A stretch of DNA of 64,000 nt from Mustelus asterias (lineage: Eukaryota), in the NCBI RefSeq assembly GCF_964213995.1, contig NW_027590134.1:930001-994000 (forward strand), written 5' to 3'. This document shows, one piece after another, positions 19,145-53,409 of the stretch. Made by a program: the position numbers and the translations under genes. Each line of letters starts with the position of its first letter. The stretch's first letter is position 1. A model generated the notes under the pieces. That model was not told where the DNA came from. It ran no database searches and was given only the letters and a program-made list of their open reading frames with translations.

Positions 19145-20634
19145 ACATTCTCTGAAGCCAGGGAATTTTGCAAAATTAAAACAAATGCATCAGCTATCTC
19201 ATTAGCCACTGATTTCATGTCCTGAGTGTGAAGCCCATCCGGACGCAGGGATTTGTCAGCCTCCAGATCCGACAATTTGCTCAATACCACTTTCCCTGGT
19301 GATTGTAATTTTCCTGAGTTCCTCCCTCCCTTCCATTTGCTGATTTCCAGCTATTTTTGGGATGTTACTTGTGTCCTCTATAGTGAACACAAATGAAAAC
19401 TACCTGTTCAATTCATTTGTCAATATCCTATTTTCCATTATCAATTCCCCAGATGCACTTTCGATAGAACCAATGCTCACTTTAATTCTTTTATTGTTTA
19501 AATACCTACAGAAACTCTGACTATCCACCTTCATGTTACTGGCTGCTTGTCGTCTTCAGCTTGTTAATTTCCTGATAAACTCAGCTTTAAAAATTGTTTG
19601 TGGACAATTCAACATTCCCACCATCCTCTATCAAGAAGCTTTTCCTGAAATTAAATAAGGGGATCAGGGATTATGGGGAAAAGGCAGAACAGTGGGGATG
19701 AGAAAAATATCAGCTATGCTTCATTGGCAGAGCAGACTCAAGCGGCCGAGTGGCCTAATTCTTATATTTTATATTCTTATATCTTATGGTCTAAATTATC
19801 CCTGAAATGTCTCACTCTCATTTTACGGTGAGGTTCCCCCATTCAGAGCTAACATAGAACATAGAACAGTACAGCACAGAACAGGCCCTTCAGCCCACGA
19901 TGTTGTGCCGAGCTTTATCTGAAACCAAGATCAAGCTATCCCACTCCCTATCATCCTGGTGTGCCCCATGTGCCTATCCAATAACCGCTTAAATGTTCCA
20001 AAAGTGTCTGACTCCACTATCACTGCAGGCAGTCCATTCCACACCCCAACCACTCTCTGTGTAAAGAACCTACCTCTGATATCCTTCCTGTATCTCCCAC
20101 CACGAACCCTATAGTTATGCCCCCTTGTAATAGCTCCATCCACCCGAGGAAATAGTCTTTGAACGTTCACTCTATCTATCCCCTTCATCATTTTATAAAC
20201 CTCTATTAAGTCTCCCCTCAGCCTCCTCCGCTCCAGAGAGAACAGCCCTCGCTCCCACAACCTTTCCTCATAAAACCTACCCTCCAAACCAGGCAGCATC
20301 CTGGTAAATCTCCTCTGCATTCTTTCCAGCGCTTCCACATCCTTCCTATAGTGAGGTGACCAGAACTGCACACAATACTCCAAATGTGGTCTAACCAAGG
20401 TCCTGTACAGTTGCAGCATAACCCCACGGCTCTTAAACTCCAACCCCCTGTTAATAAAAGCTAACACACTATAGGCCTTCTTCACAGCTCTATCCACTTG
20501 AGTGGCAACCTTTAGAGATCTGTGGATATGAACCCCAAGATCTCTCTGTTCCTCCACAGTCTTCAGAACCCTACCTTTGACTCTGTAATCCACATTTAAA
20601 TTAGCCCTACCAAAATGAATCACCTCACATTTAT

Positions 20635-20816
20635 CAGTCCAAAGATGTGCGGGTTAGGTTGATTGGCCAGGTTAAAAATTGCCCCTTAGAGTCCTGGGAT
20701 GCGTAGGTTAGAGGGATTAGCGGGTAAATATGTGGGGGTAGGGCCTGGGTGGGATTGTGGTCGGAGCAGACTCGATGGGCCGAATGGCCTCCTTCTGCAC
20801 TGTAGGGTTTCTATGG
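20635..20816 (+). mobile_element. 5'-truncated HE1-like SINE inside CR1
   Basis: cagtccaaagatgtgcggg...ctgtagggtttctatg splits the CR1 RT after WQMEFK. Confidence 0.85.
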
Positions 20817-21564
20817 TTTAAACTCCATTTGCCATTTTTCAGCCCAGCTTTGCATCCTATCTATGTCTCTTTGCAGCCTACAACAGCCCTCCACCTCATC
20901 CACTATTCCACCAATCTTGGTGTCATCAGCAAATTCACTGATCCACCCTTCAGCCCCCTCCTCTAAGTCATTAATAAAAATCACAAAGAGCAGTGGACCA
21001 AGCACTGATCCCTGCGGCACTCCGCTAGCAACCTGCCTCCAATCCGAAAATTTTCCATCGACCACCACCCTCTGTCTTCGATCAGACAGCCAGTTACCTA
21101 TCCAATCGGCCAACTTTCCCTCTATCCCACACCTCCTCACTTTCATCATAAGCCGACCATGGGGGACCTTATCAAACGCCTTACTAAAATCCATGTATAT
21201 GACATCAACTGCCCTACCTTCATCAACACACTTAGTTACCTCCTCAAAAAATTCTATCAAATTTGTGAGGCACGACTTGCCCTTCACGAATCCATGCTGA
21301 CTATCCCGGATTAATCCGCATCTTTCTAAATGGTCGTAAATCCCATCTCTAAGGATCTTTTCCATCAATTTACCAACCACCAAAGTAAGACAAACAGGTC
21401 TATAATGACCAGGGTCATTTCTATTCCCTTTCTTCAACAGAGGAACAACATTCGCCATTCTCCAGTCCTCTGGCACCATCCCCGTGGACAGCGAGGACCC
21501 AAAGATCAAAGCCAAAGGCTCTGCAATCTCATCCCTTGCCTCCCAAAGAATCCTCGGATACATT

Positions 21565-21905
21565 GGGCGGCATGGTAGCACAGTGGTTAGCACTGCTGCT
21601 TCACAGCTCCAGGGTCCCAGGTTCGATTCCCAGCTCGGGTCACTGTCTGTGTGGAGTTTGCACATTCTCCTCGTTTCTGCGTGGGTTTCCTCCGGGTGCT
21701 CCGGTTTCCTCCCACAGTCCAAAGATGTGCAAGTTAGGTTGATTGGCCAGGTTAAAAATTGCCCATAAGAGTCCAGAGATGTGTAGGTTAGAGGGATTAG
21801 CAGGTAAAATATGTGGGGGTAGGGCCTGGGTGGGATTGTGGTCAGTGCAGACTCGATGGGCCGAATGGCCTCCTTCTGCACTGTAGGGTTTCTATGATTT
21901 CTATG
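21565..21905 (+). mobile_element. Full-length HE1-like SINE inside CR1
   Basis: Splits the CR1 motif SPGPDE/MYPRIL. A and B boxes and a (TTTCTATGA)n tail are present. Confidence 0.9.
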
Positions 21906-24331
21906 ATTTCATCAGGCCCAGGGGACTTATCGACCTTCAGTTTATTCAAAACTGCCAGGACATCCTCCCTCCAAACATCTATTTCCTCCAGCCTATTCGC
22001 CTGTAACACCTTCTCTTCCTCAAAAACATGGCCCCTCTCCTTGGTGAACACTGAAGAAAAGTATTCATTCATCACCTCGCCTATCTCTACTGACTCCATA
22101 CACAAGTTCCCACTACTGTCCTTGACCGGCCCTAACCTCACCCTGGTCATTCTTTTATTCCTCACATAAGAGTAAAAAGCCTTGGGGCTTTCCTTGATCC
22201 GACCCGCCAAGGACTTCTTGTGTCCCCTCCTAGCTCTCCTAAGCCCCTTTTTCAGCTCATTCCTTGCTAACTTGTAACCCTTAATCGAGCCATCTGAACC
22301 TTGTTTCCTCGTCCCTACATAAGCTTCCCTCTTCCCTTTCACAAGACATTCCACCTCTTTCGTGAACCATGGTTCCCTCACTCGGCCATTTCCTCCCTGC
22401 CTGACAGGGACATACCTATCAAGGACATCCAGTATTTGTTCCTTGAAAAAGTTCCACTTTTCATTAGTTCCTTTCCCTGACAGTTTCTGTTCCCAACTTA
22501 TGCCCCCTAATTATTGCCTAATCGCATCATAATTACCTCTCCCCCAATTGTAAACCTTGCCCTGCCGTACGGCCCTATCCCTCGCCATTGCAATAACAAA
22601 AGACACCGAATTGTGGTCACTATCTCCAAAGTGCTCTCCCACAACCAAATCTAACACTTGGCCCGGTTCATTTCCCAGTACCAAATCCAATGTGGCCTCA
22701 CCTCTTGTCGTCCTATCCACATATTGTGTCAGGAAACCCTCCTGTACACACTGCACACAAACTGCCCCATCCGAACTATTTGACCTACAAAGGTTCCAAT
22801 CAATATTTGGAAAGTTAAAGTCTAACTACCCTGTGACCCCCACACATATGCATAATCTGCTTAGCAATTTCTTCCTCCACATCTCTATTACTATTTGGGG
22901 GCCTATAGTAAACTCCTAACAACGTGACCGCTCCTTTCCTATTTCTACCCTCAGCCCATATTACCTCAGTGAGCAGATCCCCCTTGAAGTGCCTTTCCGC
23001 AGCCGTTAAACTATCCTTGATTAACAATGCCACTCCTCCACCTCTTTTACCAGCTTCCCTACACTTAGTGAAACATCTATTCCCCGGAACGTCCAACAAC
23101 CATTCCTGTCCTTGTTCTACCCACGTCTCCGTAATGGCCACAACATCGTAGTCCCAAGTACCAATCCACGCCCCAAGTTCATCTACCTTGTTCCGGATGC
23201 TCCTTGCATTGAAGTAGACACACTTCAACCCACCTTCCTGTCTACCGGTACCCACCCTTGACCCTGATACCTTCCCCAATACCTCACCACCCTCACTGAC
23301 TTGTGGACTACAACTCCTTTTCCCACTCCCCTGACAAATTAGTTTAAACCCCCCTGAAGAGCCGTAACAAATTTCCCTCCCAGGATATTGGTGCCCCTCT
23401 GGTTCAGGTGCAGCCTGTCCTGTTTGTACAGGTCCCACCTTCCCCAGAATGTGTTCCAATTATCCACGTATCTGAAACCCTCCCTCCTACACCATCCCTG
23501 CAACCACATGTTTAACTGCACTCTCTCCCTGTTCCTCAACTCGCTATCACATGGCACCGGCAACGTACCAGAGATGACCACATGTTTTGTCTTGGCTCTC
23601 AGCTTCCAGCCCAGCTCCAGAAATTCCTGCTTTAAATCCCCGTCCCTTCTCTTACCTATGTCATTGGTACCAATGTGTACCACGACTTGTGACTGTTTCC
23701 CCTCCCCCTGCAGAATCCGGAAAACACGGTCTGAGACGTCACGGACCTTGGCATCTGGTAGGCAACATACCATCCGTGAGTCTCTTTTGCTGCCACAGAA
23801 CCTCCTATCTATCCCTCAAACTAACGAGTCCCCAATTACTATTGCCCTCCCGCTCTGCCCCTTACCCTCCCGAGCCACAGAGACGGACACAGTGCTGCAG
23901 ATCCTCTCACTGCGGCTCACCACTGGTATGTCATCCCCCTCAACCGTATCCAAAGCGGAATACTTGTTGCTAAGGGGAACGACCACCGGGGATCCCTGCA
24001 CGGACTGCTTCCTCCCAGCCCCTCTCAACGTCACCCATCTGTTTTCATTCTAACAGTTTATCTCTCTGCACCCTATCAAATCATTCACTGTAAACATCTC
24101 ACTCACATCACCACTTAATCTTCCATGTTCAGGTTATTACAGGACTAGTCTTTGCAATCTGTCCTCATCATTTGAGTCTGGCATCACTGGTGAAATTCTG
24201 CTGCTCCCACTCCAAGGCCAATCTAACCTTCCTGGGATGAACACAGTGATCTCAATGGGGTCTGAACAGAGTTTTCTGCAACTGTAACACAAATTCCAAT
24301 CCTTCATAGACTATTAGCTTTATTACTTCAC

Positions 24332-27300
24332 TGTGGTGAACCATCGTTGGTTCCCACTGTGGGATTAATACACCTGTGGTTGTTACTGTTGTGGCACATC
24401 CCAGTCGGGCTCCGCCTCCTGGGAGAGGTATAAGACCCCCTGCTCGGGCGGGACCTCGTCAGTCTGGGAAAGTGTGTTTACGTTCTATTAGTTCCATTGT
24501 TAGACAATAAAAGCCTTCTGTTACCGAAGCTTCGTGCCTCGTGTTCAATTGGCGCGCATCAATTTTATTGTCTAACATTAAGCTCTCGACGGAAGGGAAA
24601 AAGAAAGGAGAGTATGGAGCAAATCCTAAAGCCAGAACGTCTGACGCTAGATCCACGTGCGGTGGGCGCTTCTAACACCTTCGACCACTGGCTGAAGTGT
24701 TTTGAAGACTACCTGGCAGCCTCCGCAGCGGTCACCACAGATGATGACAGACTCCGGGTCCTCCATTCGAGGGTAAGCGACACAGTCTACCTCGCGATCC
24801 GTGCGGCCACCAGTTACCCGAGGGCCCTCGAGCTTTTAAAAAAGCACTACACGAAACCTCCCAACGAGATCAACGCTCGTTACCTCCTCGCTACACGACG
24901 TCGGCAGTCGGGCGAAACCATGGAGGATTACGCCAATGAGCTCTTGCAGCTTGCCAGGGGCTGTGACTGCAAAGCTGTGTCGGCTGAGCAGTACATGTAT
25001 GACCTCACCCGAGATGCGTTTGTGGCAGGGGTAGGGTCTTCATACATCCGTCTCAAGCTGCTAGAAAAGGGAAATCTCAACCTGACCCAAGCTATGGAAT
25101 TGGCTGAAATGCTTGAGGCGGCTTCGAAGAGCTTGGTCCTGTATCCGGAGGACCACGTGGAGACAACGTGGCAGGAGCAGTCGCAAATCCCTCCTCGCCC
25201 CACGGGCTCGAAGTGCAGTGTTATGGTGTGCTCCCATGTAGACCCGACGACGGCTGCTGCCCCATGCGGCCCGCGGTGGTACTTCTGCGGAGGAGCCAAG
25301 CATCCATGACAAAAGTGTCCCACTAAAGCGGTGGTCTGTAACCTATGCGGTAAAAAGGGGCATTATGCGAAGGTGTGCAGATCGAAGCCCAAGAACGGCA
25401 GTGCAGCCTGTAACCCTTCGGAATGGGGATCATCACCATCGACATCGAAGTACTCACGGGGTTCGTCCACGTGCGAGTCCAGGACGACGCCATTGTGGTC
25501 GATGGAGTCGGAGGAGTCGGAGGAGGATGACCACCAGGAGTCGTTATGTTTGGCGCCCTCAACCATGTGCGATTCATGGGGGCGGCCATTTTGGTCGACG
25601 ATGACCATGAGCGACCAGCAGGGGTCCTCAGCATCGACCTCAGCTGCCTGCAGTGACGTTCACGGACCAACGGTGGCGTCGATCACCCTGAACCAGGCTA
25701 AGCACCACAGGCTTGACTGTTCAATGATGGATATACAGGTAAATGGTCGTGCAATTTATTGTCTGTTTGACAGCGGGAGTACTGAGAGCTTTATTCACCC
25801 TGACACTGTAAAGAGGTGTGGACTCCAGATTCAACCTGCCAAACAGACAATCTCTATGGCATCAAGGTCCCGGTCTGTCCCTGTGCTAGGACGTTGTGTG
25901 GTAACCTTGAAAGTGCAAGGCACAATTTACGAGCGATTCAGGCTCCTTGTGTTGCCGCATCTTTGCGCACCAATTCTCCTCGGACTAAACTTTATGGTCC
26001 ACATGAAGAGTGTGATCCTACAGTACGGTGGGCCACTCCCTTCGCTGACAGTAGGGGAACAGCTGCAGTCTCCAAATTGTCCAAAGTGCCCCGCATGCAA
26101 TCTTTCTACATTAAAGATCACCACACTCTCTTTATTCAAGAATCTGGTACCAGGCTGCAAGCACATCGCTACTAAAAGTAGGCGTTACAGCACTGAAGAT
26201 CGGATCTTCATCAGATCTGAGGTTCAGCGACTCCTCAAAGAAGGTATCATACAGCCCAGTGTTAGTCCGTGGAGAGCACAGGTTGTGGTGGTCAAGAGTG
26301 GGAACAAACCCCGGATGGTCATTGATTACAGTCAGACCATTAATCGATATACGCAGCTGGATGCGTATCCCCTCCCGCGCATATCTGATATGGTCAATCA
26401 GATTGCGCAGTACCGGGTGTTCTCCACCATAGACCTTTGGTCCGCCTACCACCAACTCCCCATTCGCCCAGAGGACCGACACTACACGGCCTTTGAGGCG
26501 GATGGTCGTCTGTATCAGTTTCTTAGGGTTCCATTTGGTGTCACCAATGGGGTCTCGGTCTTCCAGCGTGCTATGGACCGAATGGTGGACCAGAACAGGC
26601 TGCGGGCTACCTTCCGGTACCTGGATAATGTCACCATCTGCGGCCGTGATCAGCAGGACCATGACACAAATCTCCAGAACTTTTTACGCACTGCATCTCG
26701 CCTGAATTTGACCTCGAACAGGGAGAAGTGTGTATTCCATACGCGCCGGTTAGCCATCCTGGGATACGTGGTGGAAAACGGGGTCATTGGCCCTGATCCC
26801 GACCGTATGCGCCCCCCTGCTGAACTTCCCTTGCCCGCTAGCGCAAAAGCACTGAGAAGATGCCTAGGCTTCTTCTCCTATTAGGCGCAGTGGGTCCCTA
26901 ACTACGCGGACAAAGCCCGTCCGCTTATTAAGTCCACGACTTTTCCACTCACGCCAGAGGCCCAATTGGCCTTCAAGGAATTGAAACACGACATCGCGAA
27001 AGCCACGATGCACGCGGTAGACGAATCCATCCCTTTTCAGGTGGAAAGCGATGCATCTGATTTCGCCCTGGCCGCCACACTGAACCAGGCGGGCAGGCCC
27101 ATCGCGTTTTTTTCCCGCACCCTCCAAGGCCCCGAAATTCGGCATTCAGCGGTGGAAAAGGAGGCCCAGGCCATTGTGGAGGCCGTCAGACACTGGCACC
27201 ATTACCTGGCGGGGAAGCGGTTCACTCTGATCACGGACCAGCGGTCCGTGGCGTTCATGTTCAACAACACGCAGAGGGGCAAGATCAAGAATGATAAGAT

Positions 27301-28903
27301 CTTGTGGTGGAGAATTGAACTCTCCACCTATAACTACGATATCATGTATCGTCCAGGGAAACTCAATGAGCCCTCGGATGCCCTCTCGCGCGGAACATGC
27401 GCTACTATGCAGGAGGATCGCTTGAACGCCCTCCATAATGACCTGTGCCATCCTGGGGTCACTCGGCTCTACCACTTTATCAAAGCCCGCAACCTGCCTT
27501 ACTCGGTGGAGGACGTCAGGTCGGTGACAAGGAGCTGTCGGATTTGCGCGGAATGCAAACCGCACTGTTACCGACCTGACCGGGCACATTTGGTCAAGGC
27601 CACTCGCCCCTTCGAGAGGCTGAGTGTGGATTTTAAGGGCCCCCTTCCCTCAACAGATCGGAACGTGTACTTTCTGAACATAATAGATGAGTACTCCCGG
27701 TTCCCGTTTGTTGTCCCCTGCGCGGACACGTCGACTGCCACGGTGATCAAGGCATTCCGTGATCTTTTTACCCTGTTCGGGTACCCCAGCTATATCCATA
27801 GCGACAGGGGCTCGTCGTTCATGAGTAATGACTTGAGGCAATTCCTGCTCTCATGCGGGATTGCCTCTAGTAGGACCACGAGTTACAACCCTAGGGGTAA
27901 TGGACAGGTGGAAAGAGAGAATGCTACAGTCTGGAAGGCTGTCCTATTGGCGCTGAAGTCCAAAGGCCTTCCAGTCTCCCATTGGCAGGAGGTCCTCCCT
28001 AATGCGCTTCACTTCATTCGCTCCCTCCTGTGTACGGTAACCAATGCTACTCCCCATGAGAGGATGTTCTCATTCCCTCGGAAGTCGTCCTCGGGGATAT
28101 CTTTACCAGCCTGGTTGACATACCCAGGACCCGTCCTTCTGCGGCGACAGGTAAGGGTCCGCAAGTCCGACCCCTTGGTCGAACAGGTCCACCTCCTCCA
28201 CGCCAACCCTCAGTATGCCTATGTGGCATATCCTGACGGGCGAGAGGACACAGTCTCGATCCGAGACCTGGCGCCCGCAGGGGACGTAGCAACTCCTGTC
28301 GCTCCCATACCCCCAGTGACGAATCCCTTATTTCTCCCCCGGACATGGCGCGGACAGCATCGGGACCAGTGCTTAACAGTTTTACTCCAATGCACAGCTT
28401 GCCTGAGCCCCGGAGATCGGCGCCATCGCAGAATGTACCGGGATCCCCTGCACTACCGCTTCATCAGGGTCAACCGGCCTGTGAGTCCGTGGGGGAACAG
28501 CTGGACGCTGTTTTGGGGAGAACGCCACCGCAAGCACCTACTCCGGTGTCACCGCCGGTATTGAGGAGGTCACAACGACGGTGCGGTCCTCCAGACCGTC
28601 TGAACTTATAATCTGTTGACATTTTAGTCTGTTTTCGTACCCCGCCGGCCTTTGTTCTCAAAGGAGGGGTGAATGTGGTGAACCATCGTTGGTTCCCACT
28701 GTGGGATTAATACACCTGTGGTTGTTACTGTTGTGGCACATCCCAGTCGGGCTCCGCCTCCTGGGAGAGGTATAAGACCCCCTGCTCGGGCGGGACCTCG
28801 TTAGTCTGGGATAGTGTGTTTACGTTCTATTAGTTCCATTGTTCGACAATAAAAGCCTTCTGTTACCGAAGCTTCGTGCCTCGTGTTCAATTGACGCGCA
28901 TCA
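24332..28903 (+). mobile_element. Full-length Gypsy (Mag-like) LTR retrotransposon, left copy, with 230-bp LTRs (24332-24561, 28674-28903) and 5-bp TSD TTCAC
   Basis: TGT...CA LTRs. TTCAC at 24327-31 and 28904-08. Polypurine tract aaaggaggggtgaa. Gag has CCHC knuckles; protease LFDSGS, RT YLDN, RNase H ESDASD, integrase HSDRG. Premature stops at 25307 (TGA) and 26882 (TAG). Confidence 0.96.
24614..28564 (+). pseudogene. Gypsy gag-pol pseudo-ORF
   Basis: ORFs 24497-25309, 25331-26884 and 26966-28564 share one frame and are separated by nonsense codons. Confidence 0.9.
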
Positions 28904-28933
28904 TTCACCTACCAGTTAATGATGTCTGTACAC

Positions 28934-29290
28934 GGGGGGAGGTGATGGCCGAGTGGTATTATCACTATGCTATTAATCCAGAAACTCAGCTAATGTTCTG
29001 GGGACCCGGGTTCGAATCCTGCCACGGCAGTTGATGGAATTTAAATTTGATAAAAAAATATCTGGAATTAAGAATCTACTGATGACCGTGAAGCTATTGT
29101 CGATTGTCAGAAAATCCTATCTGGTTCACTTCCTTTCGGGAGGAAATCTGCCGTCCTTACCCGGTATGGCCGTCATGTGACTCCAGAGCCACAGCACTGT
29201 GGTTGACTCTCAACTGTCCTCTGAACAAGGGCAACTCAGGATGTGCATTAAATGCTGGCCAGTCAGCGATGCCCATGTCCCACAAATGAT
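28934..29290 (+). mobile_element. tRNA-headed SINE, second family
   Basis: A box tggccgagtgg, B box gggttcgaatcc, tail taaatgctggcc...gcccatgtcccacaaatga. Confidence 0.8.
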
Positions 29291-30312
29291 TTTTAAAAAA
29301 ACACGGCCCTCTGTTCGTCTGCAGTTTCCTGCATCTCGCCACAAATATAACCACTCTGCTCTACTACATCACAAGGACGTTTCAAACTATATGTGTTCCC
29401 AAGGATAATCTGTTTCTGTCACTATGAACTTTTCTCGTTGTTCTTTCAGCCGGTGTAAATCCAGAGAATGGAAGGGATGGAGGGAAAAATCTTTCCCGAA
29501 TCCTATTTGGTCATCATTCCAATAACATTTGGGTGAGGAAATCTAATCGTCAGTCTCTGTGAAAAGCTGTATCCGGCACCTTCCTATTCGATGGTTAGAA
29601 TGTAAAATGGAATAACTTCGACTGCTGTTTGTGTCTCCTGTCCTGTAAACCAAACATTAACCCAGAATTCACTCACTGCCTTCGCTTTGTGCTGAAAACT
29701 GTTATTATTCTGTTGTTTTCACAGCTCCAAAATGACCTCATTAGCGGCTGTTTTTCGCGGTAACGGGCCCTTCTCTCAATTCCTGAAATGTTCATTGATT
29801 CATCATTTTATTCACAGTAATTCTCCGCAGGGTAACAGTCCGGAGTGGGATTATTACAGAGCGGAATAAGGACAGTGTGCGGACTCGATCCGGCTCCCTG
29901 TTTTCTGTGAAGGAGAGTGGGTTCTGATTGAAGACGAAACGGAGTGTTTTCCTTCTGGGAATGCTGTGAACAGGGATTGATTCCCGCCCGGGACAGTTAG
30001 AAAGCGATAGGAGAATGAAGCACATTGAAATAAAATGTTAAAGCCGCGCCTGCGATTGGTGACGGGAAGAGCTGAATAAAAGCAAATCAATAGAAGGGAT
30101 TTGAAATCTCTGACTAAGGACGACATTGATTTGAATTCGCTCCTTTCCCACAATGAAATTGGCGGCTTTTGGAAATGGACAAATTCTCTGCTTCTGCCGG
30201 ATGTTGTGGGGAAGTCCCGCCCTCTTCTGTTTCCAGTGAGCTGATTGGTGAAGAATATAGGCAAATGAGGTGAATAGAGCAGCGGCCAATCAGAGGAGCT
30301 GTCAGTTTATAA

Positions 30313-30762
<450 letters not shown>

Positions 30763-31539
30763 AGCGCCCATTCTTTAATCTGATAACCCAAAGGCTCTTT
30801 TCAGAGCCACTCATTTTATCTGAAAAAGGGCGACCTGGTGTCTATCGGTCAGTTTCTGCACTGCTATTCACAGCACAGCTGTTTCCCGCTTTGTTCTATC
30901 AATCCGTACTATTGACACATACAGTATTTTAATGCAACTTGCTGCTGTTTATCGGGGAAACTATCCCAGTGAACATAAATGATCCTATTTCAAATATAAT
31001 TGCTTTAAAATGTGATAGTCTGCGAGGACATTCATCTGCAGCCCATCGGTTTTCAAAGTCAGTCACTATCTGGAAAAGTGTTAATTATTGTCCATGCGAA
31101 TGTGCAAGCGTTTCTGCAATGGCTATATCTGTGTGAGTGGGCTCCTGTTTGAGACATGCTTCATATTCTGAACCTAATTGACGCAATTTTCAACACTCGC
31201 TGCGACTCGAAACATGTGCGGAGAAAGTCGATTTGCGGAATTATTGCTCGGAAACTGAAATGATCGCAGGTTTAATAAAACCACTTTAAAATTGAATTGC
31301 GGTAGAACTGTTAACGGCATCGTTTTTACTCTAACCATCGAAGGATTGGAGATATGAGTGACCTCAATGCAACGGAGGGTTAATTGTAACATTGAGAGGT
31401 TTCAGTACTGGAGTCCTGGGAATATTCTGTCCTGGGAATTCAAACACTAGAATCGTTAACAGGAGATCGCAGCTCTTTCATTTGCCGATTTGGTGGCTCT
31501 TAAAAGAGCCGTTGTTGTACTTGGTGCTGAAGTCGGGGT

Positions 31540-32010
<471 letters not shown>

Positions 32011-33275
32011 TTAAACTCTGTGAGGAACCGCCCCCAGCGGGAATTGGCCCAGGAAGTTTCAATCAAACTCTGACCAGGGAATTAATGTCTGTAACTCAGG
32101 TTCTGATTGGTTCAGTTGTTTTGTTAACCGCGCCTTTCAGAAATTGGGCCGTTTTCGATGCAGGAAATAGCCGTCTGTATAAAAGACTTTATCCCGTCCT
32201 TATTAAAACAAACATGACTCGAAATATTGAAGAAGTCTATCTCCCTGCCCTTAGTGCTTTAGACCCTTTCCCCGCTCTCTGGGCTGTTCATTCCCAGAAT
32301 CTCCCGCTGTTCCACTCGATCCCTGTCCCTCTGCGCTCCAGCCCATTCAGATTTCCCCTCTCCTGCGGCTTGTAACATTCGCCGCCGTTTCCGGGAAAGG
32401 ATCAGAAATCCTTCTCTGTGTCTCCCTGAAGCCGGTGTGAAAGGGGTTGAGTCTGTTGTTTGTTCCAGAGAGTGACTTCATATTTGTCCCGTTTGACATT
32501 ACTGAATAGAACCGTTTGCCGCCCGTGGCGGACAAATGTTCACAAATGAAAACTCTTTGTAAAATAATCTTACAGCAGAATATTAATTGAGAATCTATTT
32601 TTAATAAGTTAAGAATTTGTCTCAATTCCCTTTCCCGCGCTGAAATTGGCGGCATTTCCCCCCAATTCAAAATTTCTGCCGGTTGACAGTTGAAGCCAAT
32701 GATTGGCTCAATGTTCACATTCGATGCTCTGCGATTGGTTCAGAGCTGCGAATGTGGAGAGGATGGCCAATCAGAAGCAGGCTGGGGTTGGAGCGGCTAA
32801 AACTGCGGGAATTGCGGGTTTGTGAATGACTGAGCGGAAACTGATCAGTTTCACAAAGCGTCAGTTTCAGTGCAGGAAACAACCGTCTGGGGGCAAATAG
32901 CATCACAACTGGGACTGGTTCCAGTGAACGATTCACCGGCTGCTGCTACTAAACTCCGCTATTCCAGAGAAAGCTTTGATACACTATGAAAACACTGTGA
33001 TTAGGCAGGAGTGATGTGGCGTTTCACTGAGGGCACATGTCAACTGTGGGCTGATTCGACAATACACTAAATTTCAAAAACAATCCGCATGGCTGCTCCA
33101 AATGAAATGTTAAATTCGGTGATTCCCGCACTGTAACCTAAACAAAACAAACATGCATCTCAAACACTGAACAGCCTGTCCCAGCTCCGTCCCCAGGTCA
33201 CTGCTCTCTCTGTGAAGCGGTGAGTGGCCCTTAAAAGAGCCTTTGTTGTGTGTTCGGGAGGAAGGTTGCAGTTGT

Positions 33276-33596
<321 letters not shown>

Positions 33597-34111
33597 TCAC
33601 TCAGATCACTGCACAATATGAGACAGGAACTTTTTCAGGCTCCTTTTATACAGCCCGCCCCGACCTGACTCAGAAAGGCGGAGTGAGAGCAGCGAGGGGA
33701 GGAGACAGAGTGAAGATTAAACACAGAGCGGGAGGGAGGAGAGAGCCGGACTGACACACACACACAGAACGGCCCCTGATCTTTCAGCTCCACCTCCAGT
33801 TTCTGCAACCGCCAATTTCAACCCGTTTATTAACAATGGAAGCGAAACACAGCTCCCCACACAAACCCTTCCAGAGCCGCCCTTCACACACAAGAGTTTC
33901 CACAAACCCGGAACTTTGAAATATGGAATCAAAACAGAAAATGCTGCAAATAATCAGCAGCTCCGGCAGCTTTTGTGAAGAGAGAGAGAGAGACAGAGTT
34001 AACGTTTCGGGTCGTGACTCTTTGCTTTTGTGTTTTTAAACCTGGCCCCGTTATAATAAGAAGTCTCACAACACCAGGTTAAAGTCCAACAGGTTTATTT
34101 GGTAGCAAATA

Positions 34112-34148
34112 CCATAAGCTTTCGGAGCAATGCTCCTTCGTCAGATGG
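34112..34148 (-). ncRNA. Minimal hammerhead ribozyme motif (antisense copy in inverted pLTR)
   Basis: Exact reverse complement of 36976-37012. Confidence 0.7.
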
Positions 34149-36975
34149 AGTGGTCTCTGTTACAGACATCAAGTTTCTACAAACATGCAAGAAAGCAGAC
34201 AAGATACCGAAAGGACTACGGATCACGAACCCACTCAGGTCAACCTTTAACACGGACTACGCTGAGAGACTGTGCCGTCACACCTCTCTCACCCTCCTCA
34301 AACACCTCATACACCAACTCTACAGCAAACGCCGCAGCCTGGAAACCAAGATCGAATCCATAGTCTCAACCTGCGCTCAGGACGCAGACCAGCTGCGAAA
34401 CTCTGCCAAGCAGACGAGACAAAGGAACGACACCATCTACATGCACACCAAGAACAGGAAACTTGAGAAACTCGGCATCACCACCAGCAGCAACCAAGCC
34501 TCCCCCGGTATCACAGTAGAAAACAGTACCACTGCAGGAAAGTCCATTGTCAACCTATCGGACTACACACTTCAGCCAGATGAAATTGAAGTTCTCAGCC
34601 GAGGGCTCAACTTTTGCCCCACTACCAAAATAGACCCCATCAGTCTCGCAGCGGACACAGAGGAATTCATCAGGCGAATGAGGCTGCGGGAGTTCTTCCA
34701 CAAACCCCAAGAGGCCAACAGCGAACACAATGAGACAGCTAATGAACCGGAACAGCAGACAGAGAGATCCGCAGTGCAACCGAAGAGGAAAGAGTCGAAT
34801 TGGACTCCTCCGGAAGGCCGCTGCCCTCGACTTGACATGTATGCCCAAGGCATCAGGAGGCGCGTCAACACCAAATTCATCAGCCGCACTCACAAGACAG
34901 CACCGAACATCACCCAAGCACAACGCAACGCCATCCACGCTCTCAAGACCAACCGCAACATTGTCATCAAACCAGCAGACAAAGGAGGGGCCATCGTCAT
35001 ACTGAACAGAACGGATTACTGCAAAGAAGTGTACCGACAACTGAACAATGAGGAACACTACAGATAGTTACCCACAGATCCGACCAAAGAACACACCCGT
35101 CCACTCAACACTCTGATCAAAACCTTTGATCCGGACCTTCAGAGCACCCTCCGTGCTCTCATCGCACGTACTCCACGCGTTGGAGATCTCTACTGCCTCC
35201 CAAAAATACACAAGGCAAACACACCCGGCCGTCCCATCGTTTCAGGAAACGGAACCCTGTGCGAGAACCTCTCCGGCTATGTCGAGGGCATCTTGAAACC
35301 CATTGTACAAAGAACCCCCAGCTTTTGTCGCGACACTACGGACTTCCTACAGAAACTCAACACACATGGAGCAGTTGAACCAGGAGCACTCCTCGTCACA
35401 ATGGATGTCTCGGCACTCTACACCAGCGTCCCCCACGATGATGGCATTGCTGCAACGGCCTCAGTACTCAATGCCGTCAACTGCCAGTTTCCAGATGCAA
35501 TTTTACAACCCATCCGCTTCATCCTGGATCACAATATCTTCACCTTCAACAACCAGTTCTTCATCCAGACACAAGGAACAGCCATGGGGACAAAATTCGC
35601 ACCTCAATATGCCAACATCTTCATGCACAGGTTCGAACAAGACTTCTTCACTGCACAGGACCTTCAACCGATGCTATACACTAGATACATCGATGACATT
35701 TTCTTCCTTTGGAGTCATGGTGAGCAATCACTGAAAAAACTATATGATGACATCAACAAGTTCCATCCCACCATCAGACTCACCATGGACTACTCTCCGG
35801 AATCGGTTGCATTCTTGGACACACGCATCTCCATTAAGGATGGTCACCTCAGCACCTCACTGTACCGCAAGCCCACGGATAACCTCATGATGCTCCACTT
35901 CTCCAGCTTCCACCCGAAACACGTAAAAGAAGCCATCCCCTACGGACAAGCCCTCCGAATACACAGGATCTGCTCGGATGACGAGGATCGCAACAGTCAC
36001 CTCCAGACGCTGAAAGATGCCCTCATAAGAACAGGATATGGCGCTCGACTCATCGATCAACAGTTTCGACGTGCCACAGTGAAAAACCGCACCAACCTCC
36101 TCAGAAGACAAACACGGGACACGGTGGACAGAGTACCCTTCGTCGTCCAGTACTTCCCCGAAGCGGAGAAGCTACGGCATCTCCTCCGGAGCCTTCAACA
36201 TGTCATTGATGAAGACGAACATCTCGCCAAGGCCATCCCCACACCCCCACTTCTTGCCTTCAAACAACCACGCAACCTCAAACAGACCATTGTTCCCAGC
36301 AAACTACCCAGCCTTCAGGAGAACAGTGACCAAGACACCACACAACCCTGCCACAGCAACCTCTGCAAGACGTGCCGGATCATCAACACGGATGCCATCA
36401 TCTCACGTGAGAACACCATCCACCAGGTACACGGTACATACTCTTGCAACTCGGCCAACGTTGTCTACCTGATACGCTGCAAGAAAGGATGTCCCGAGGC
36501 ATGGTACATTGGGGAAACCATGCAGACGCTACGACAGCGGATGAATGAACACCGCTCGACAATCACCAGGCAAGACTGTTCTCTTCCTGTGGGGGAGCAC
36601 TTCAGCAGTCACGGGCATTCAGCCTTGGATCTTCAGGTAAGCGTTCTCCAAGGTGGCCTTCACGACACACGACAGCGCAGAGTCACTGAGCAGAAACTGA
36701 TAGCCAAGTTCTGCACACATGAGGACGGTCTAAACCGGGATGTTGGATTTATGTCACATTATCAGTAACCCCCACAGCTTGACTCCTGGACTTGCACAAT
36801 TTCACAAGCTGTACTGTCTGGAGACAATACACATCTCTTTAACCTGTGTTGAATGCTCCCTCCACCCACATTGTCTGTGCATTTAAGACCTGGCTGGCTG
36901 TAGAGATTTGCATTCTAATCAGTATTCTGTAATTTGATTTCTGTGTCTGTGCCCTGTTTGAGAACAGAGACCACT

Positions 36976-37012
36976 CCATCTGACGAAGGAGCATTGCTCC
37001 GAAAGCTTATGG
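36976..37012 (+). ncRNA. Minimal type-I hammerhead ribozyme motif in Penelope pLTR
   Basis: CCAT-CTGACGA-A-GGAGC-ATT-GCTCC-GAAA-GCTT-ATGG: CUGANGA and GAAA core, stem I CCAT/ATGG, stem II GGAGC/GCTCC, palindromic AGCT in place of stem III. Confidence 0.78.
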
Positions 37013-37530
37013 TATTTGCTACCAAATAAACCTGTTGGACTTTAACCTGGTGTTGTGAGACTTCCTACTGTGCTTACCCCAGTCCAACGCCGGCATCTCC
37101 ACATCCCGTTATAATTCCCAGTCAGTAATATTCCGACCTAAACACAGCAAGAATCTCCCTCAGTAACATCCTCACCCACATCCGCTTCCAGCTGTTTACA
37201 AATACCTTATTGCAGCTGTTTGGAGAAATCTCCTGTGTTAAAATTGAAGTTGGAAAGCGCTTTTTAGCCGCCAGTGTTACTGTCTCACACTGAATCTACC
37301 AGACATCTTTATTATGAGAGAAAGTGACGATTGAACAAATGTGAAATTCAAATGAAATTCAGCATCTGCTGTGTTTTGCTTTAGTCTGAATTTGAAATGA
37401 TCTCTATTGAGAACGAGCCGGGCCGCGGGACAGGAATCATTTTCTTGCGGGATCAGCTCTTTCCTGAGAGATGTGGGTGGCTCTGAGAAGAGCCTTTGGG
37501 TTCAGGGGTTTACAATTTGCTCGGGTTGTT

Positions 37531-42980: not shown

Positions 42981-43841
42981 AACAACCCGAGCAAATTGTA
43001 AACCTCTGAACCCAAAGGCTCTTCTCAGAGCCACCCACATCTCTCAGGAAAGAGCTGATCCCGCAAGAAAATGATTCCTGTCCCGCGGCCCGGCTCATTC
43101 TCAATAGAGATCATTTCAAATTCAGACTAAAGCAAAACACAGCAGAGGCTGAATTTCATTTGAATTTGACATTTGTTCAATCGCCACTTTCTCTCATAAT
43201 AAAGATGTCTGGTAGATTCAGTGTGAGACAGTAACACTGGCGGCTAAATACCGCTTTCCAACTTCAATTTTAACAGGAGATTTCCCCAAACAGCTGCAAT
43301 AAGGTATTTGTAAACAGCTGGAAGCGGATGTGGGTGAGGATGTTCCTGAGGGAGATTCTTGCTGTGTTTAAGTCGGAATATTACTGACTGGGAATCATAA
43401 CGGGGCCAGGTTTTAAACACAAAAGCAAAAAGTCACGAACCGACTCGTTAACTCCCTCTTCACAAAAGCTGCCGGAGCTGCTGATTATTTGCAGCATTTT
43501 CTGTTTTGATTCCATATTTCAAAGCTCCAGGTTTGTGGAAACTCTTGACTGTGAAGGGCGGCTCTGGAAGGGTTTGTGTGGGGAGCTGTGTTTCGCTTCC
43601 ATTGTTATTAAACGGGTTGAAATTGGCGGTTGCTGAAACTGGAGGTGGAGCTGAAAGATCAGGGGCCGTTCTGTGTGTGTGTGTCAGTCCGGCTCTCTCC
43701 TCCCTCCCGCTCTGTGTTTAATCTTCACCCTATCTCCTCCCCTCTCTGCTCTCACTCCGCCTTTCTCAGTCAGGTCGGTGCGGGCTGTATAAAAGGAGCC
43801 TGAAAGATTTCCTCTCTCATATTGTGCAGAGATCTGAGTGA

Positions 43842-44162
<321 letters not shown>

Positions 44163-45445
44163 ACAACTCGCTCCTTTCTCCCGAACACACAACAAAGGCT
44201 CTTTTAAGAGCCACTCACCGCCTCACAGAGAGAGCAGTGACCTGGGAGCGGGGGCTGGGATAGGCTGTTCAATGTTTGAGATGCATGTTTGTTTTGTTTA
44301 GGTTACAGTGCGGGAATCACCGAATTTAACATTTCATTTGGAGCGGCGATGGGAATTGTTTTTGAAATTTTTAAGAGGATTGTCTGAGCAGCCCCCAGTT
44401 GACATGTGCCCTCAGTGAAACGCCACATCACTCCTGTTTAATCACTCAGTGTTTGGATAGAGTTTATAAAAGCTTTCTCTGGAATAGCGGAGTTTAGTAG
44501 CAGCAGCCGGTGAATCGTTCACTGGAACCAGTCCCAGTTGTGATGCTATTTGCCCCCAGACGGTTGTTTCCTGCACTGAAACTGACGCTTTGTGAAACTG
44601 ATCAGTTTCCGCTCAGTCATTCACAAACTCGCAATTCCCGCAGTTTGAGCCGCTCCAAACCCCAGCCTGCTTCTGATTGGCCATCCTCTCCACATTCGCA
44701 GCTCTGAACCAATCGCAGAGCATCGAATGTGAACATTGAGCCAATCATTGGCTTCAACTGTCAACCGGCAGAAATTTTGAATTGGGGGAAATGCCGCCAA
44801 TTTCAGCGCGGGAAAGGGAATTGAGACAAATTCTTAACTTATTAAAAATAGATTCTCAATTAATATTCTGCTATAAGATTATTTTACAAAGAGGTTTCAT
44901 TTGTGAACATTTGTCCGCCACGGGCGGCAAACGGCTCTATTCAGTAATGTCAAACGGGACAAATATGAAGTCACTCTCTGTAACAAACAACAAACTCAAC
45001 CCCTTCCACACCGGCTTCAGGGAGACACAGAGAAGCGACTGATTTCTGATCCTTGCCCCCGAAAACGGCAGCGAATGTTACAAACGACAGGAGAGGGGAA
45101 ATCTGAATGGGCTGGAGAGGAAAGGGACAGGGATCGAGTGGAACAGCGGGAGATTCTGGGAATGAACAGCCCAGAGAGCGGGGAAAGGGTCTAAAGCACT
45201 AAGGGCAGGGAGATAGACTTCTTCAATATTTCGAGTCATGTTTGTTTTAATCAGGACGGGATAAATACCCGTCTTTTATACAGACGGCTATTTCCTGCAT
45301 CGAAAACGGCCCAATTTCTGAAAGGCGCGGTTAACAAAACAACTGAACCAATCAGAACCTGAGTTACAGACATTAATTCGCTGGTCACCGTTTGATTGAA
45401 ACTTCCTGGGCCAATTCCCGCTGGGGGCGGTCCCTCACAGTTTAA

Positions 45446-45925
<480 letters not shown>

Positions 45926-46701
45926 ACCCCGACTTCAGCACCAAGTACAACAACGGCTCTTTTAAGAGCCACCAAATCGGCAAATGAAAGAGCTGCGATC
46001 TCCTGTTAACGATTCTAGTGTTTGAATTCCCAGGACAGAATATTCCCAGGACTCCAGTACTGAAACCTCTCAATGTTACAATTAACCCTCCGTTGCATTG
46101 AGGTCACTCATATCTCCAATCCTTCGATGGTTAGAGTAAAAACGATGCCGTTAACAGTTCTACCGCAATTCAATTTTAAAGTGGTTTTATTAAACCTGCG
46201 ATCATTTCAGTTCCGAGCAATAATTCCGCAAATCGACTTTCTCCGCACATGTTTCGAGTCGCAGCGAGTGTTGAAAATTGCGTCAATTAGGTTCAGAATA
46301 TGAAGCATGTCTCAAACAGGAGCCCACTCACACAGATATAGCCATTGCAGAAACGCTTGCACATTCGCATGGACAATAATTAACACTTTTCCAGATAGTG
46401 ACTGACTTTGAAAACCGATGGGCTGCAGATGAATGTCCTCGCAGACTATCACATTTTAAAGCAATTATATTTGAAATAGGATCATTTATGTTCACTGGGA
46501 TAGTTTCCCCGATAAACAGCAGCAAGTTGCATTAAAATACTGTACGTGTCAATAGTACGGATTGATAGAACAAAGCGGGAAACAGCTGTGCTGTGAATAG
46601 CAGTGCAGAAACTGACCGATAGACACCAGGTCGCCCTTTTTCAGATAAAATGAGTGGCTCTGAAAAGAGCCTTTGGGTTATCAGATTAAAGAATGGGCGC
46701 T

Positions 46702-47151
<450 letters not shown>

Positions 47152-48179
47152 TTATAAACTGACAGCTCCTCTGATTGGCCGCTGCTCTATTCACCTCATT
47201 TGCCTATATTCTTCACCAATCAGCTCACTGGAAACAGAAGAGGGCGGGATTTCCCCACAACAACCGGCAGAAGCAGAGAATTTGTCCATTTCCAAAAGCC
47301 CGCCAATTTCATTGTGGGAAAGGAGTGAATTCAAATAAATCAATGTCGCCCTTAGTCAGAGATTTCAAATCCCTTCTATTGATTTGCTTTTATTCAGCTC
47401 TTCCCGTCACCAATCGCAGGCGCGGCTTTAACATTTTATTTCAATGTGCTTCATTCTCCTATCGCTTTCTAACTGTCCCGGGCGGGAATCAATCCCTGTT
47501 CACAGCATTCCCAGAAGGAAAACACTCCGTTTCGTCTTCAATCAGAACCCACTCTCCTTCACAGAAAACAGGGAGCCGGATCGAGTCCGCACACTGTCCT
47601 TATTCCGCTCTGTAATAATCCCACTCCGGACTGTTACCCTGCGGAGAATTACTGAGAATAAAATGATGAATCAATTAACATTTCAGGAATTGAGAGAAGG
47701 GACCGTTACCGCGAAAAACAGCCGCTAATGAGGTCATTTTGGAGCTGTGAAAACAACAGAATAATAACAGTTTTCAGCACAAAGCGAAGGCAGTGAGTGA
47801 ATTCTGGGTTAATGTTTGGTATACAGGACAGGAGACACAAACAGCAGTCGAAGTTATTCCATTTTACATTCTAACCATCGAATAGGAAGGTGCCGGATAC
47901 AGCTTTTCACAGAGACTGACGATTAGATTTCCTCACCCAAATGTTATTGGAATGATGACCAAATAGGATTCGGGAAAGATTTTTCCCTCCATCCCTTCCA
48001 TTCTCTGGATTTACACCGGCTGAAAGAACAACGAGAAAAGTTCATAGTGACAGAAACAGATTATCCTTGGGAACACATTTAGTTTGAAACGTCCTTGTGA
48101 TGTAGTAGAGCAGAGTGGTTATATTTGTGGCGAGATGCAGGAAACTGCAGACGAACAGAGGGCCGTGTTTTTTAAAAAT

Positions 48180-48535
48180 TCATTTGTGGGACATGGTCAT
48201 CGCTGACTGGCCAGCATTTAATGCACATCCTGAGTTGCCCTTGTTCAGAGGACAGTTGAGAGTCAACCACAGTGCTGTGGCTCTGGAGTCACATGACGGC
48301 CATACCGGGTAAGGACGGCAGATTTCCTCCCGAAAGGAAGTGAACCAGATAGGATTTTCTGACAATCGACAATAGCTTCACGGTCATCAGTAGATTCTTA
48401 ATTCCAGATATTTTTTTATCAAATTTAAATTCCATCAACTGCCGTGGCAGGATTCGAACCCGGGTCCCCAGAACATTAGCTGAGTTTCTGGATTAATAGC
48501 ATAGTGATAATACCACTCGGCCATCACCTCCCCCC
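48180..48535 (-). mobile_element. tRNA-headed SINE, second family (mirror of 28934-29290)
   Basis: Reverse complement of the left-arm copy. Confidence 0.8.
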
Positions 48536-48565
48536 GTGTACAGACATCATTAACTGGTAGGTGAA

Positions 48566-51500
48566 TGATGCGCATCAATTGAACACGAGGCACGAAGCTT
48601 CGGTAACAGAAGGCTTTTATTGTCGAACAATGGAACTAATAGAACGTAAACACACTATCCCAGACTGACGAGGTCCCGCCCGAGCAGGGGGTCTTATACC
48701 TCTCCCAGGAGGCGGAGCCCGACTGGGATGTGCCACAACAGTAACAACCACAGGTGTATTAATCCCACAGTGGGAACCAACGATGGTTCACCACATTCAC
48801 CCCTCCTTTGAGAACAAAGGCCGGCGGGGTACGAAAACAGACTAAAATGTCAACAGATTATAAGTTCAGACGGTCTGGAGGACCGCACCGTCGTTGTGAC
48901 CTCCTCAATACCGGCGGTGACACCGGAGTAGGTGCTTGCGGTGGCGTTCTCCCCAAAACAGCGTCCAGCTGTTCTCCCACGGACTCACAGGCCGGTTGAC
49001 CCTGATGAAGCGGTAGTGCAGGGGATCCCGGTACATTCTGCGATGGTGCCGATCTCCGGGGCTCAGGCAAGCTGTGCATTGGAGTAAAACTGTTAAGCAC
49101 TGGTCCCGGTGCTGTCCGCGCCACGTCCGGGGGAGAAATAAGGGATTCGTCACTGGGGGTATGGGAGCGACAGGAGTTGCTACGTCCCCTGCGGGCGCCA
49201 GGTCTCGGATCGAGACTGTGTCCTCTCGCCCGTCAGGATATGCCACATAGGCATACTGAGGGTTGGCGTGGAGGAGGTGGACCTGTTCGACCAAGGGGTC
49301 GGACTTGCGGGCCCTTTCCTGTCGCCGCAGAAGGACGGGTCTTGGGTACGTCAACCAGGCTGGTAAAGATATCCCTGAGGACGACTTCCGAGGGAATGAG
49401 AACATCCTCTCGTGGGGAGTAGCATTGGTTGCCGTACACAGGAGGGAGCGAATGGAGTGAAGCGCATTAGGGAGGACCTCCTGCCAATGGGAGACTGGAA
49501 GGCCTTTGGACTTCAGCGCCAATAGGACAGCCTTCCAGACTGTAGCATTCTCTCTTTCCACCTGTCCATTACCCCTAGGGTTGTAACTCGTGGTCCTACT
49601 AGAGGCAATCCCGCATGAGAGCAGGAATTGCCTCAAGTCATTACTCATGAACGACGAGCCCCTGTCGCTATGGATATAGCTGGGGTACCCGAACAGGGTA
49701 AAAAGATCACGGAATGCCTTGATCACCGTGGCAGTCGACGTGTCCGCGCAGGGGACAACAAATGGGAACCGGGAGTACTCATCTATTATGTTCAGAAAGT
49801 ACACGTTCCGATCTGTTGAGGGAAGGGGGCCCTTAAAATCCACACTCAGCCTCTCGAAGGGGCGAGTGGCCTTGACCAAATGTGCCCGGTCAGGTCGGTA
49901 ACAGTGCGGTTTGCATTCCGCGCAAATCCGACAGCTCCTTGTCACCGACCTGACGTCCTCCACCGAGTAAGGCAGGTTGCGGGCTTTGATAAAGTGGTAG
50001 AGCCGAGTGACCCCAGGATGGCACAGGTCATTATGGAGGGCGTTCAAGCGATCCTCCTGCATAGTAGCGCATGTTCCGCGCGAGAGGGCATCCGAGGGCT
50101 CATTGAGTTTCCCTGGACGATACATGATATCGTAGTTATAGGTGGAGAGTTCAATTCTCCACCGCAAGATCTTATCATTCTTGATCTTGCCCCTCTGCGT
50201 GTTGTTGAACATGAACGCCACGGACCGCTGGTCCGTGATCAGAGTGAACCGCTTCCCCGCCAGGTAATGGCGCCAGTGTCTGACGGCCTCCACAATGGCC
50301 TGGGCCTCCTTTTCCACCGCTGAATGCTGAATTTCGGGGCCTTGGAGGGTGCGGGAAAAAAACGCGATGGGCCTGCCCGCCTGGTTCAGTGTGGCGGCCA
50401 GGGCGAAATCAGATGCATCGCTTTCCACCTGAAAAGGGATGGATTCGTCTACCGCGTGCATCGTGGCTTTCGCGATGTCGTGTTTCAATTCCTTGAAGGC
50501 CAATTGGGCCTCTGGCGTGAGTGGAAAAGTCGTGGACTTAATAAGCGGACGGGCTTTGTCCGCGTAGTTAGGGACCCACTGCGCCTAATAGGAGAAGAAG
50601 CCTAGGCATCTTCTCAGTGCTTTTGCGCTAGCGGGCAAGGGAAGTTCAGCAGGGGGGCGCATACGGTCGGGATCAGGGCCAATGACCCCGTTTTCCACCA
50701 CGTATCCCAGGATGGCTAACCGGCGCGTATGGAATACACACTTCTCCCTGTTCGAGGTCAAATTCAGGCGAGATGCAGTGCGTAAAAAGTTCTGGAGATT
50801 TGTGTCATGGTCCTGCTGATCACGGCCGCAGATGGTGACATTATCCAGGTACCGGAAGGTAGCCCGCAGCCTGTTCTGGTCCACCATTCGGTCCATAGCA
50901 CGCTGGAAGACCGAGACCCCATTGGTGACACCAAATGGAACCCTAAGAAACTGATACAGACGACCATCCGCCTCAAAGGCCGTGTAGTGTCGGTCCTCTG
51001 GGCGAATGGGGAGTTGGTGGTAGGCGGACCAAAGGTCTATGGTGGAGAACACCCGGTACTGCGCAATCTGATTGACCATATCAGATATGCGCGGGAGGGG
51101 ATACGCATCCAGCTGCGTATATCGATTAATGGTCTGACTGTAATCAATGACCATCCGGGGTTTGTTCCCGCTCTTGACCACCACAACCTGTGCTCTCCAC
51201 GGACTAACACTGGGCTGTATGATCCCTTCTTTGAGGAGTCGCTGAACCTCAGATCTGATGAAGATCCGATCTTCAGTGCTGTAACGCCTACTTTTAGTAG
51301 CGATGGGCTTGCAGCCTGGTACCAGATTCTTGAATAAAGAGAGTGTGGTGATCTTTAATGTAGAAAGATTGCATGCGGGGCGCTTTGGACAATTTGGAGA
51401 CTGCAGCTGTTCCCCTACTGTCAGCGAAGGGAGTGGCCCACCGTACTGTAGGATTTGTACTTCATGTGGACCATAAAGTTTAGTCCGAGGAGAATTGGTG

Positions 51501-53127: not shown

Positions 53128-53409
53128 GTGAAGTAATAAAGCTAATAGTCTATGAAGGATTGGAATTTGTGTTACAGTTGCAGAAAACTCTGTTCAGACC
53201 CCATTGAGATCACTGTGTTCATCCCAGGAAGATTAGATTGGCTTTGGAGTGGGAGCAGCAGAATTTCACCAGTGATGCCAGACTCAAATGATGAGGACAG
53301 ATTGCAAAGACTAGTCCTGTAATAACCTGAACATGGAAGATTAAGTGGTGATGTGAGTGAGATGTTTACAGTGAATGATTTGATAGGGTGCAGAGAGATA
53401 AACTGTTAG

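Follow-up and report, generated by a model that had tools for sequence, protein, structure and literature searches.

The window, that is, the whole 64,000-nt stretch of Mustelus asterias DNA analysed here, harbors a Gypsy LTR retrotransposon of 4.57 kb on the forward strand (24332–28903), bounded by a 5-bp target-site duplication (TTCAC) at 24327–24331 and 28904–28908. Its 230-nt 5′ LTR (24332–24561), which begins with TG and ends with CA, is a direct repeat of the 3′ LTR (28674–28903) with 98% identity, and a polypurine tract shared by the family copies (28660–28673) abuts the latter. The gag-pol frame (24614–28564) encodes a CCHC knuckle in Gag, followed by protease, reverse transcriptase (RT), RNase H and integrase domains without a chromodomain, and is broken by in-frame stops at 25307–25309 and 26882–26884. 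LTRs of the TG...CA form, a target-site duplication and a polypurine tract are all features of Ty3/Gypsy elements; the Pfam domain order (protease-RT-RNase H-integrase) is likewise that of Ty3/Gypsy, and the best PDB match of the RT is Ty3 RT (E = 6.5e-35). The closest named proteins come from cartilaginous fishes.

The insertion lies in a 14-kb inverted segmental duplication (window 20001–33986 and 43452–57455, 98.5% identical) that also holds histone genes, and another contig (C85) carries two more copies of the same insertion. Directly upstream of the element, a fragmented and partly rearranged CR1-type LINE occupies 19931–23815 on the minus strand, and long Penelope-like RT frames span 34060–36768, with a 105-nt inverted repeat on both sides (34057–34161 and 36963–37067). 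Among the copies L001–L060, LTR length rises in steps of 230, 263, 274, 307 and 351 nt within the first ~190 nt of the LTR, while the LTRs are otherwise 98–99% identical between copies, pointing to a probable repeat expansion in U3.

The first-pass annotation had claimed that the sequence just after the 5′ LTR, where a primer-binding site (PBS) is expected, perfectly complements 15 nt of the LTR itself and lacks the TGG of a tRNA-complementary site. Both observations held. The predicted PBS (24563–24577) is the exact reverse complement of an arm within the LTR (24498–24512), the likely self-primer, which contains AATAAA at 24506–24511; the LTR ends in CA at 24561, and a single A, with no TGG, follows. 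Between arm and PBS lies a 49-nt loop (24513–24561) that runs from a predicted cut (AAA↓GCC) to the LTR end and would be the template for minus strong-stop DNA. The 80 bases of arm, loop and PBS recur unchanged on the minus strand at 52882–52961, in the inverted segmental duplicate of the insertion, and these two sites are the only perfect inverted repeats of at least 15 bp with a loop of at most 100 nt in the window. Folding of the arm/PBS region gave z = −2.67, with 2 of 200 shuffles equally good. At 30 5′ junctions of the element's own family (family A), four of which are duplicates of one insertion, the arm and PBS paired at 15/15 positions in 26 and at 14/15 in the remaining 4.

The annotation had further held that only the 5′ LTR keeps the perfect match, and had read this as coupling priming to suppression of premature polyadenylation. 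The window's 3′ LTRs do mismatch, owing to an A-to-C change at 28844 in the arm copy, but the mismatch is private and not a family trait. Among 14 3′ LTRs, TGTTCGAC occurs in the window's two only and TGTTAGAC in 10, the other 2 representing a sister subfamily; all six solo LTRs carry TGTTAGAC. Because the two C85 duplicates of the window's insertion retain the A, as do the other 3′ and solo LTRs, the C arose after insertion. A designed asymmetry was accordingly rejected, and the argument drawn from it was wrong; any masking specific to the 5′ end would come from the PBS adjoining the 5′ LTR.

As a check, the annotation had proposed examining covariation between the two 15-mers, and we found that arm and PBS change together across shark subfamilies and distant relatives. 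Other shark families, fetched through Gag homologues at 54–68% identity, each carried their own arm with a matching complementary PBS. Two compensated pairs distinguish sister subfamilies whose Gag N-termini are 98% identical, and in one family (L104) AATAAA is replaced by ATTAAA in both LTRs and the PBS follows (ATTAAAA/TTTTAAT). An alignment of 40 polyproteins led us to 80 metagenome and 9 genome-contig loci, the metagenome relatives having RTs 50–65% identical. We examined the 42 of these 89 non-shark loci that retained a gag start and upstream DNA; many loci of the WLWD01 assembly are copies of three families. An unanchored search recovered perfect stems of 13–19 bp in 31/42 loci, against at most 11 bp in shuffles (20 per locus). 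Six of the 11 misses had the same geometry with mismatches, and three were layout artefacts: L144, L157 and L196 carry stems of 16 bp (at the true gag start), 12 bp and 14 bp, the last read by eye at the other end of its contig. This leaves L180 and L193: the former has only a 9-bp stem with a different spacer (95–175), and no stem was found in the latter (1–119) on re-examination.

Subsequently, we reduced 127 copies (91 shark, 36 other) to 68 arm/PBS types, after dropping from the shark set exact duplicates, four loci without a recognisable LTR end and three damaged or mis-anchored loci. Thirty-one distinct stems (11 shark, 20 metagenome) were perfect over 13 bp. At positions 8–13, outside the shared A-rich core, a PBS paired with its own arm at 5.59 of 6 positions on average, whereas shuffled partners reached 3.08, with a maximum of 3.66 in 10,000 shuffles; the shuffle takes no account of relatedness, and although each arm was identified as the best complement, the arms always ended at the same AAA↓RCC junction. 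Watson-Crick pairing falls from 65/68 types at position 13 to 46/68, 34/68 and 19/68 at positions 14, 15 and 16, and the junctions are fixed in nearly all 68 types, with an RCC-like motif after the arm and CA plus A before the PBS.

Several further observations concern individual positions or loci. Position 10 from the 3′ end of the arm (window 24503) is G in 59/64 paired types, while its neighbours vary freely. A G-U pair that appeared to be fixed in the L123 family proved to be a private wobble, since 28/30 copies of that family pair at 15/15 positions. The divergence of arms was also set against that of their flanks, in pairs picked for differing arms, and for that reason the contrast carries no weight as a measure of rate. 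Host contamination probably explains the presence of some lineage members (L221–L229) on contigs from assemblies that carry the label of bacterial metagenome-assembled genomes. An unrelated LTR pair around one lineage member (L154:3094–3456) has an ordinary TGG primer site. No relatives of the lineage were found in the viral contigs scanned.

A full tRNA ends in CCA and requires TGG in the PBS. Across the lineage, the PBS begins with TT in 66/68 types, and none of the at least 31 PBS sequences starts with TGG. When the PBS was compared with host tRNAs, another check that the annotation had named, the best match was 6 nt among 31 distinct calls, a partial set of few isotypes, mostly Thr. A tRNA-primed control from the same genome was sought, and no LTR pair was found in L278/L279. 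Given 31 different perfect 13-bp stems that all end at AAA↓RCC, the PBS appears too variable for any tRNA, and tRNA priming is very unlikely. The annotation's suggestion of self-priming is thus well supported, as the complementarity covaries and the PBS is too variable for a tRNA.

We considered whether the stem might serve only to mask the 5′ poly(A) signal or to package the RNA, with a host RNA, a tRNA fragment or a protein as the primer. Of 37 representatives, which were chosen by us and favour well-paired copies, 28 have an arm that terminates in AATAAA or ATTAAA, and three of the other nine have the hexamer in the loop; this frequency speaks for such a role, as does the narrow span of the tRNA comparison. 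Nevertheless, the 3′ strand of the stem begins exactly one base past the LTR end, where a primer must bind, and the stem is retained in six relatives whose arms hold no signal (L141, L143, L145, L158, L186 and L216). The variety of PBS sequences without TGG, with no tRNA match beyond 6 nt, also argues against this reading. Pairing chemistry points the same way. A second helix of at least 4 bp opens at the first base after the arm in 22/37 representatives, compared to 7.1 expected and a maximum of 15 in 1000 shuffles, a count that takes in related rows; this hairpin is weak in the window's own family. G-U pairs make up 27/100 pairs of the second hairpin and only 2/481 pairs of the arm/PBS core in these author-chosen representatives, and none occur at positions 1–13 in the 27 non-shark types, although G-U pairs should be tolerated in a helix with a purely structural role, as they are in the second hairpin. 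We therefore regard a stem without a priming function as very improbable. Because some relatives' arms lack the signal, priming would be the role that never varies, and poly(A) masking would be no more than a common addition to it. The annotation's proposal that the fold-back hides AATAAA in the 5′ LTR thus stands as plausible in the many copies whose arm ends in the hexamer but fails as a general rule, and masking is plausibly secondary to priming.

The predicted promoter bears on how the primer would be made. A predicted TATA box (24429–24435) is present in 14/14 shark representatives, 83–95 nt before the arm end, and a pyrimidine-pyrimidine-A lies 31–33 nt after the TATA T in all 14 by eye. 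In the window, an initiator-like TCAGT (24459–24463), also read by eye, places the predicted RNA start at A24461, ~37 nt before the arm. The primer of Tf1, by comparison, is the first 11 bases of its RNA, and RNase H cuts between bases 11 and 12 (PMC7175516). If the shark element worked identically to Tf1, transcription would start at the 5′ edge of the arm and the first 13–15 RNA bases would be the primer. The sharp edge of the stem at 13–15 bp could indeed mark an RNA 5′ end at the arm; furthermore, many arms have an initiator-like YAGY near position 11, the G at position 10 is nearly invariant, and no promoter could be placed in the non-shark LTRs. However, the TATA box and initiator lie at a regular spacing well upstream of the arm in every shark representative, stems of 16–19 bp extend past the YAGY in several relatives, and AATAAA would follow almost immediately on a start placed at the arm. 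This makes an arm at the extreme 5′ end improbable, and we favour a start upstream of it. Contigs from four runs of unrecorded type yielded no information on RNA starts or ends.

The strictness of the core suggested how the PBS is inherited. In Ty3 RT, the active sites for polymerase and for RNase H are ~13 bp apart (PMC5371799), and the enzyme cuts 11–12 nt from the polymerase site (PMC11363490); the 13-bp core may be linked to this spacing. To follow inheritance within one shark group comprising 583 5′ junctions and four PBS types, the first 100 listed were fetched as an unselected sample. Both arms were readable in 75, and in 56 of these the two arms and the PBS agreed throughout. Four copies carried the PBS alone of another subfamily and two a private PBS change; four had another subfamily's arm in one LTR only (2 + 2); a private change was present in one arm in seven and in both arms, uncompensated, in one, and one copy differed everywhere. 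Two targeted patterns gave 11 matches, among them five PBS-only swaps (L448, L468, L469, L447/L471 and L475), of which L448 and L447/L471 also occur in the sample and L469 is a complex mosaic; the rest comprised one probable swap without a 3′ LTR, one uncompensated private change in both arms and four ordinary copies. In L448 the swapped PBS is changed at two positions, whereas gag, the leader and the arms of both LTRs all remain of the copy's own type; with a background C-G change of 0.18% per site per copy, this swap is unlikely to have arisen by point mutation. In both sample cases that were informative, the exchanged stretch stops within 7 nt and short of the leader, and no joint swap of PBS and leader was found among the copies typed. 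Together, the avoidance of G-U pairs, the 13-bp length of the core and the PBS-only swaps suggest a PBS copied anew from its primer, and a primer that another RNA can donate.

Switches of the arm in one LTR were about as frequent as PBS-only swaps (2 + 2 versus 4), so exchange between copies may also contribute to the swap signal. Copies with another subfamily's arm in one LTR alone (L365, L379, L396, L443 and L469) suggest intermolecular plus-strand transfer or gene conversion between copies. Copying at the DNA level would also fit strict Watson-Crick pairing, and we accordingly considered templated correction between the closely spaced inverted repeats, with no priming at all, as the force that keeps the complementarity. 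Resident copies nevertheless drift apart, as mismatches at one site that affect just the 5′ arm or just the PBS show; moreover, under such correction the element would have no primer, and nothing would explain why the position is fixed among elements whose RTs are 50–65% identical. We judge it extremely unlikely, and the non-priming roles remain quite improbable even when taken together.

A closer competitor is self-priming in which the arm is supplied by the 3′ LTR copy or by a second RNA, either another genome packaged alongside or a short transcript that originates in a solo or a 5′ LTR; the primer would then anneal to the PBS and be trimmed at AAA↓RCC. Both ends of the RNA would carry the arm if R spans it, solo LTRs exist (six seen), and PBS-only swaps bring in the PBS of another subfamily; the U5 loop markers of L448 are of the recipient type, which a cis route predicts less well, with the caveat that the key loop base also occurs in seven of the donor-type copies. 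PBS-only swaps, however, would also arise if priming occurred in cis and the first jump then led to a second RNA, and a local fold over 50 nt should form first. For a primer from the 3′ copy in particular, no private change was compensated in all three places in any of the 75 copies, and L372 and L474, two cases that count lightly against it, share a private arm change in both LTRs with an uncompensated PBS. A further set of 18 copies with mismatched or rare stems, in which both LTRs were covered apart from one 3′ LTR, showed about as many changes in the 5′ arm only as in the PBS only; since mutation after insertion is expected to produce equal counts, this set does not discriminate between primer sources. 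We thus hold a primer from the 3′ end or in trans to be rather unlikely and lean towards cis fold-back from the 5′ arm, whereas self-priming in one form or another is highly probable from the comparative sequence evidence.

The favoured cis route can be set out as follows. Transcription would likely start ~37 nt before the arm. The arm would then likely pair with the PBS, ~50 nt further downstream, and in many cases the second hairpin immediately follows the arm. As in Tf1, cleavage by the element's own RNase H at AAA↓RCC would leave a 3′-OH, and a strong-stop DNA of ~50 nt would then jump to the 3′ end. With a poly(A) signal inside the arm or shortly behind it, the RNA would end past the cut and thereby supply the overlap for this transfer. 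Plus-strand synthesis likely copies ~13 nt of the primer, rewriting the PBS in each cycle; we propose that this rewriting explains why the core is strictly Watson-Crick, why compensation is quick and why the PBS alone is swapped in some copies. Concealment of the 5′ poly(A) signal may be a by-product of the fold or a second role for it. The lineage is likely, on these grounds, a group of Gypsy elements without a chromodomain that prime reverse transcription with their own LTR arm instead of a tRNA. More broadly and more tentatively, we suggest that a widespread animal Gypsy lineage with thousands of shark copies has its own tRNA-free priming outside the chromoviruses, in which an internal arm that overlaps the poly(A) signal and is cut at a fixed junction would be able to prime another RNA and would rewrite the PBS each cycle, with primer and PBS drifting together freely and a single helix setting priming, transfer overlap and 5′ masking.

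Self-priming has been demonstrated experimentally for Tf1, has been treated as a mark of the Tf1/sushi chromoviruses and has been predicted in some plant Copia elements. Whether hairpin priming is ancestral or evolved several times has been asked before (PMC3601003), and a large animal lineage outside the chromoviruses whose geometry differs would bear on the answer. The high-copy shark families offer a natural record of PBS inheritance, so that genome sequence by itself suffices to test where the primer comes from. PBS-directed control by tRNA fragments would likewise fail to reach self-primed elements, and annotation tools that depend on a tRNA PBS would overlook them.

Self-primed Gypsy non-chromoviruses of marine invertebrates have reportedly been recorded in Repbase by Kapitonov and Jurka; the idea would then be the same and the lineage possibly so. 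We know of no account in those entries of the covariation, the junction rules, the G-U contrast or the PBS swaps. No self-priming non-chromoviral Gypsy lineage of animals was described in the literature that we searched, which left most subscription papers and Repbase Reports outside its scope. Cigr-1 is a short non-chromoviral Gypsy element similar in size to the shark element. Its clade, known from Ciona intestinalis, is also found in molluscs (PMC6238403), and a tunicate protein is among the shark RT matches (61%); the shark lineage is a candidate member of this clade. The TGTGGYG start of the shark LTR fits the motif given for the CsRN1 clade (CsRn1, PwRn1 and Boudicca) in Table 3 of PMC3601003. 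CsRN1 elements as described in PMC2582038 have a tRNA-Trp PBS and a CHCC Gag motif, however, whereas the shark element has neither and carries a CCHC knuckle instead.

Beyond these clades, self-priming has been predicted from LTR/PBS complementarity for the Gypsy chromovirus Tcn1 and for the Copia elements TAR, Houba and Osr-1 (PMC6317226), and is thus not confined to one clade; these plant elements belong to another superfamily or clade, whereas the shark lineage is an animal non-chromovirus. In an RT tree of 49 rows (five dropped for short matches), with four other shark Gypsy rows as outgroup and no chromovirus reference, the shark families and their relatives fell on one side of a branch with 100/98 support. 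None of 17 chromodomain hits in the genome designated G000 lay near an integrase, and no chromovirus was found there.

The closest parallel in mechanism is provided by Tf1 and Tf2 of Schizosaccharomyces pombe, Tj1, Tosmo and the Tf1/sushi chromoviruses, in which, as in the shark element, the PBS complements the element's own LTR. Self-priming with an RNase H cut has been shown for Tf1 (PMC7175516), and extra helices beside its primer duplex form a three-duplex 'pretzel' (PMC10085805) that the second helix of the relatives recalls, weak as it is in the window's family. Unlike the Tf1/sushi group, the shark lineage has no chromodomain, either in the window element or in any of the 40 related polyproteins. 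Its core is at least 13 bp long, compared to 11 in Tf1, and ~37 nt of RNA are predicted to precede its arm, which in most cases overlaps the poly(A) signal, whereas the Tf1 primer is at the 5′ end. Collectively, the shark element very probably primes its own reverse transcription in the manner of Tf1 without being a chromovirus.
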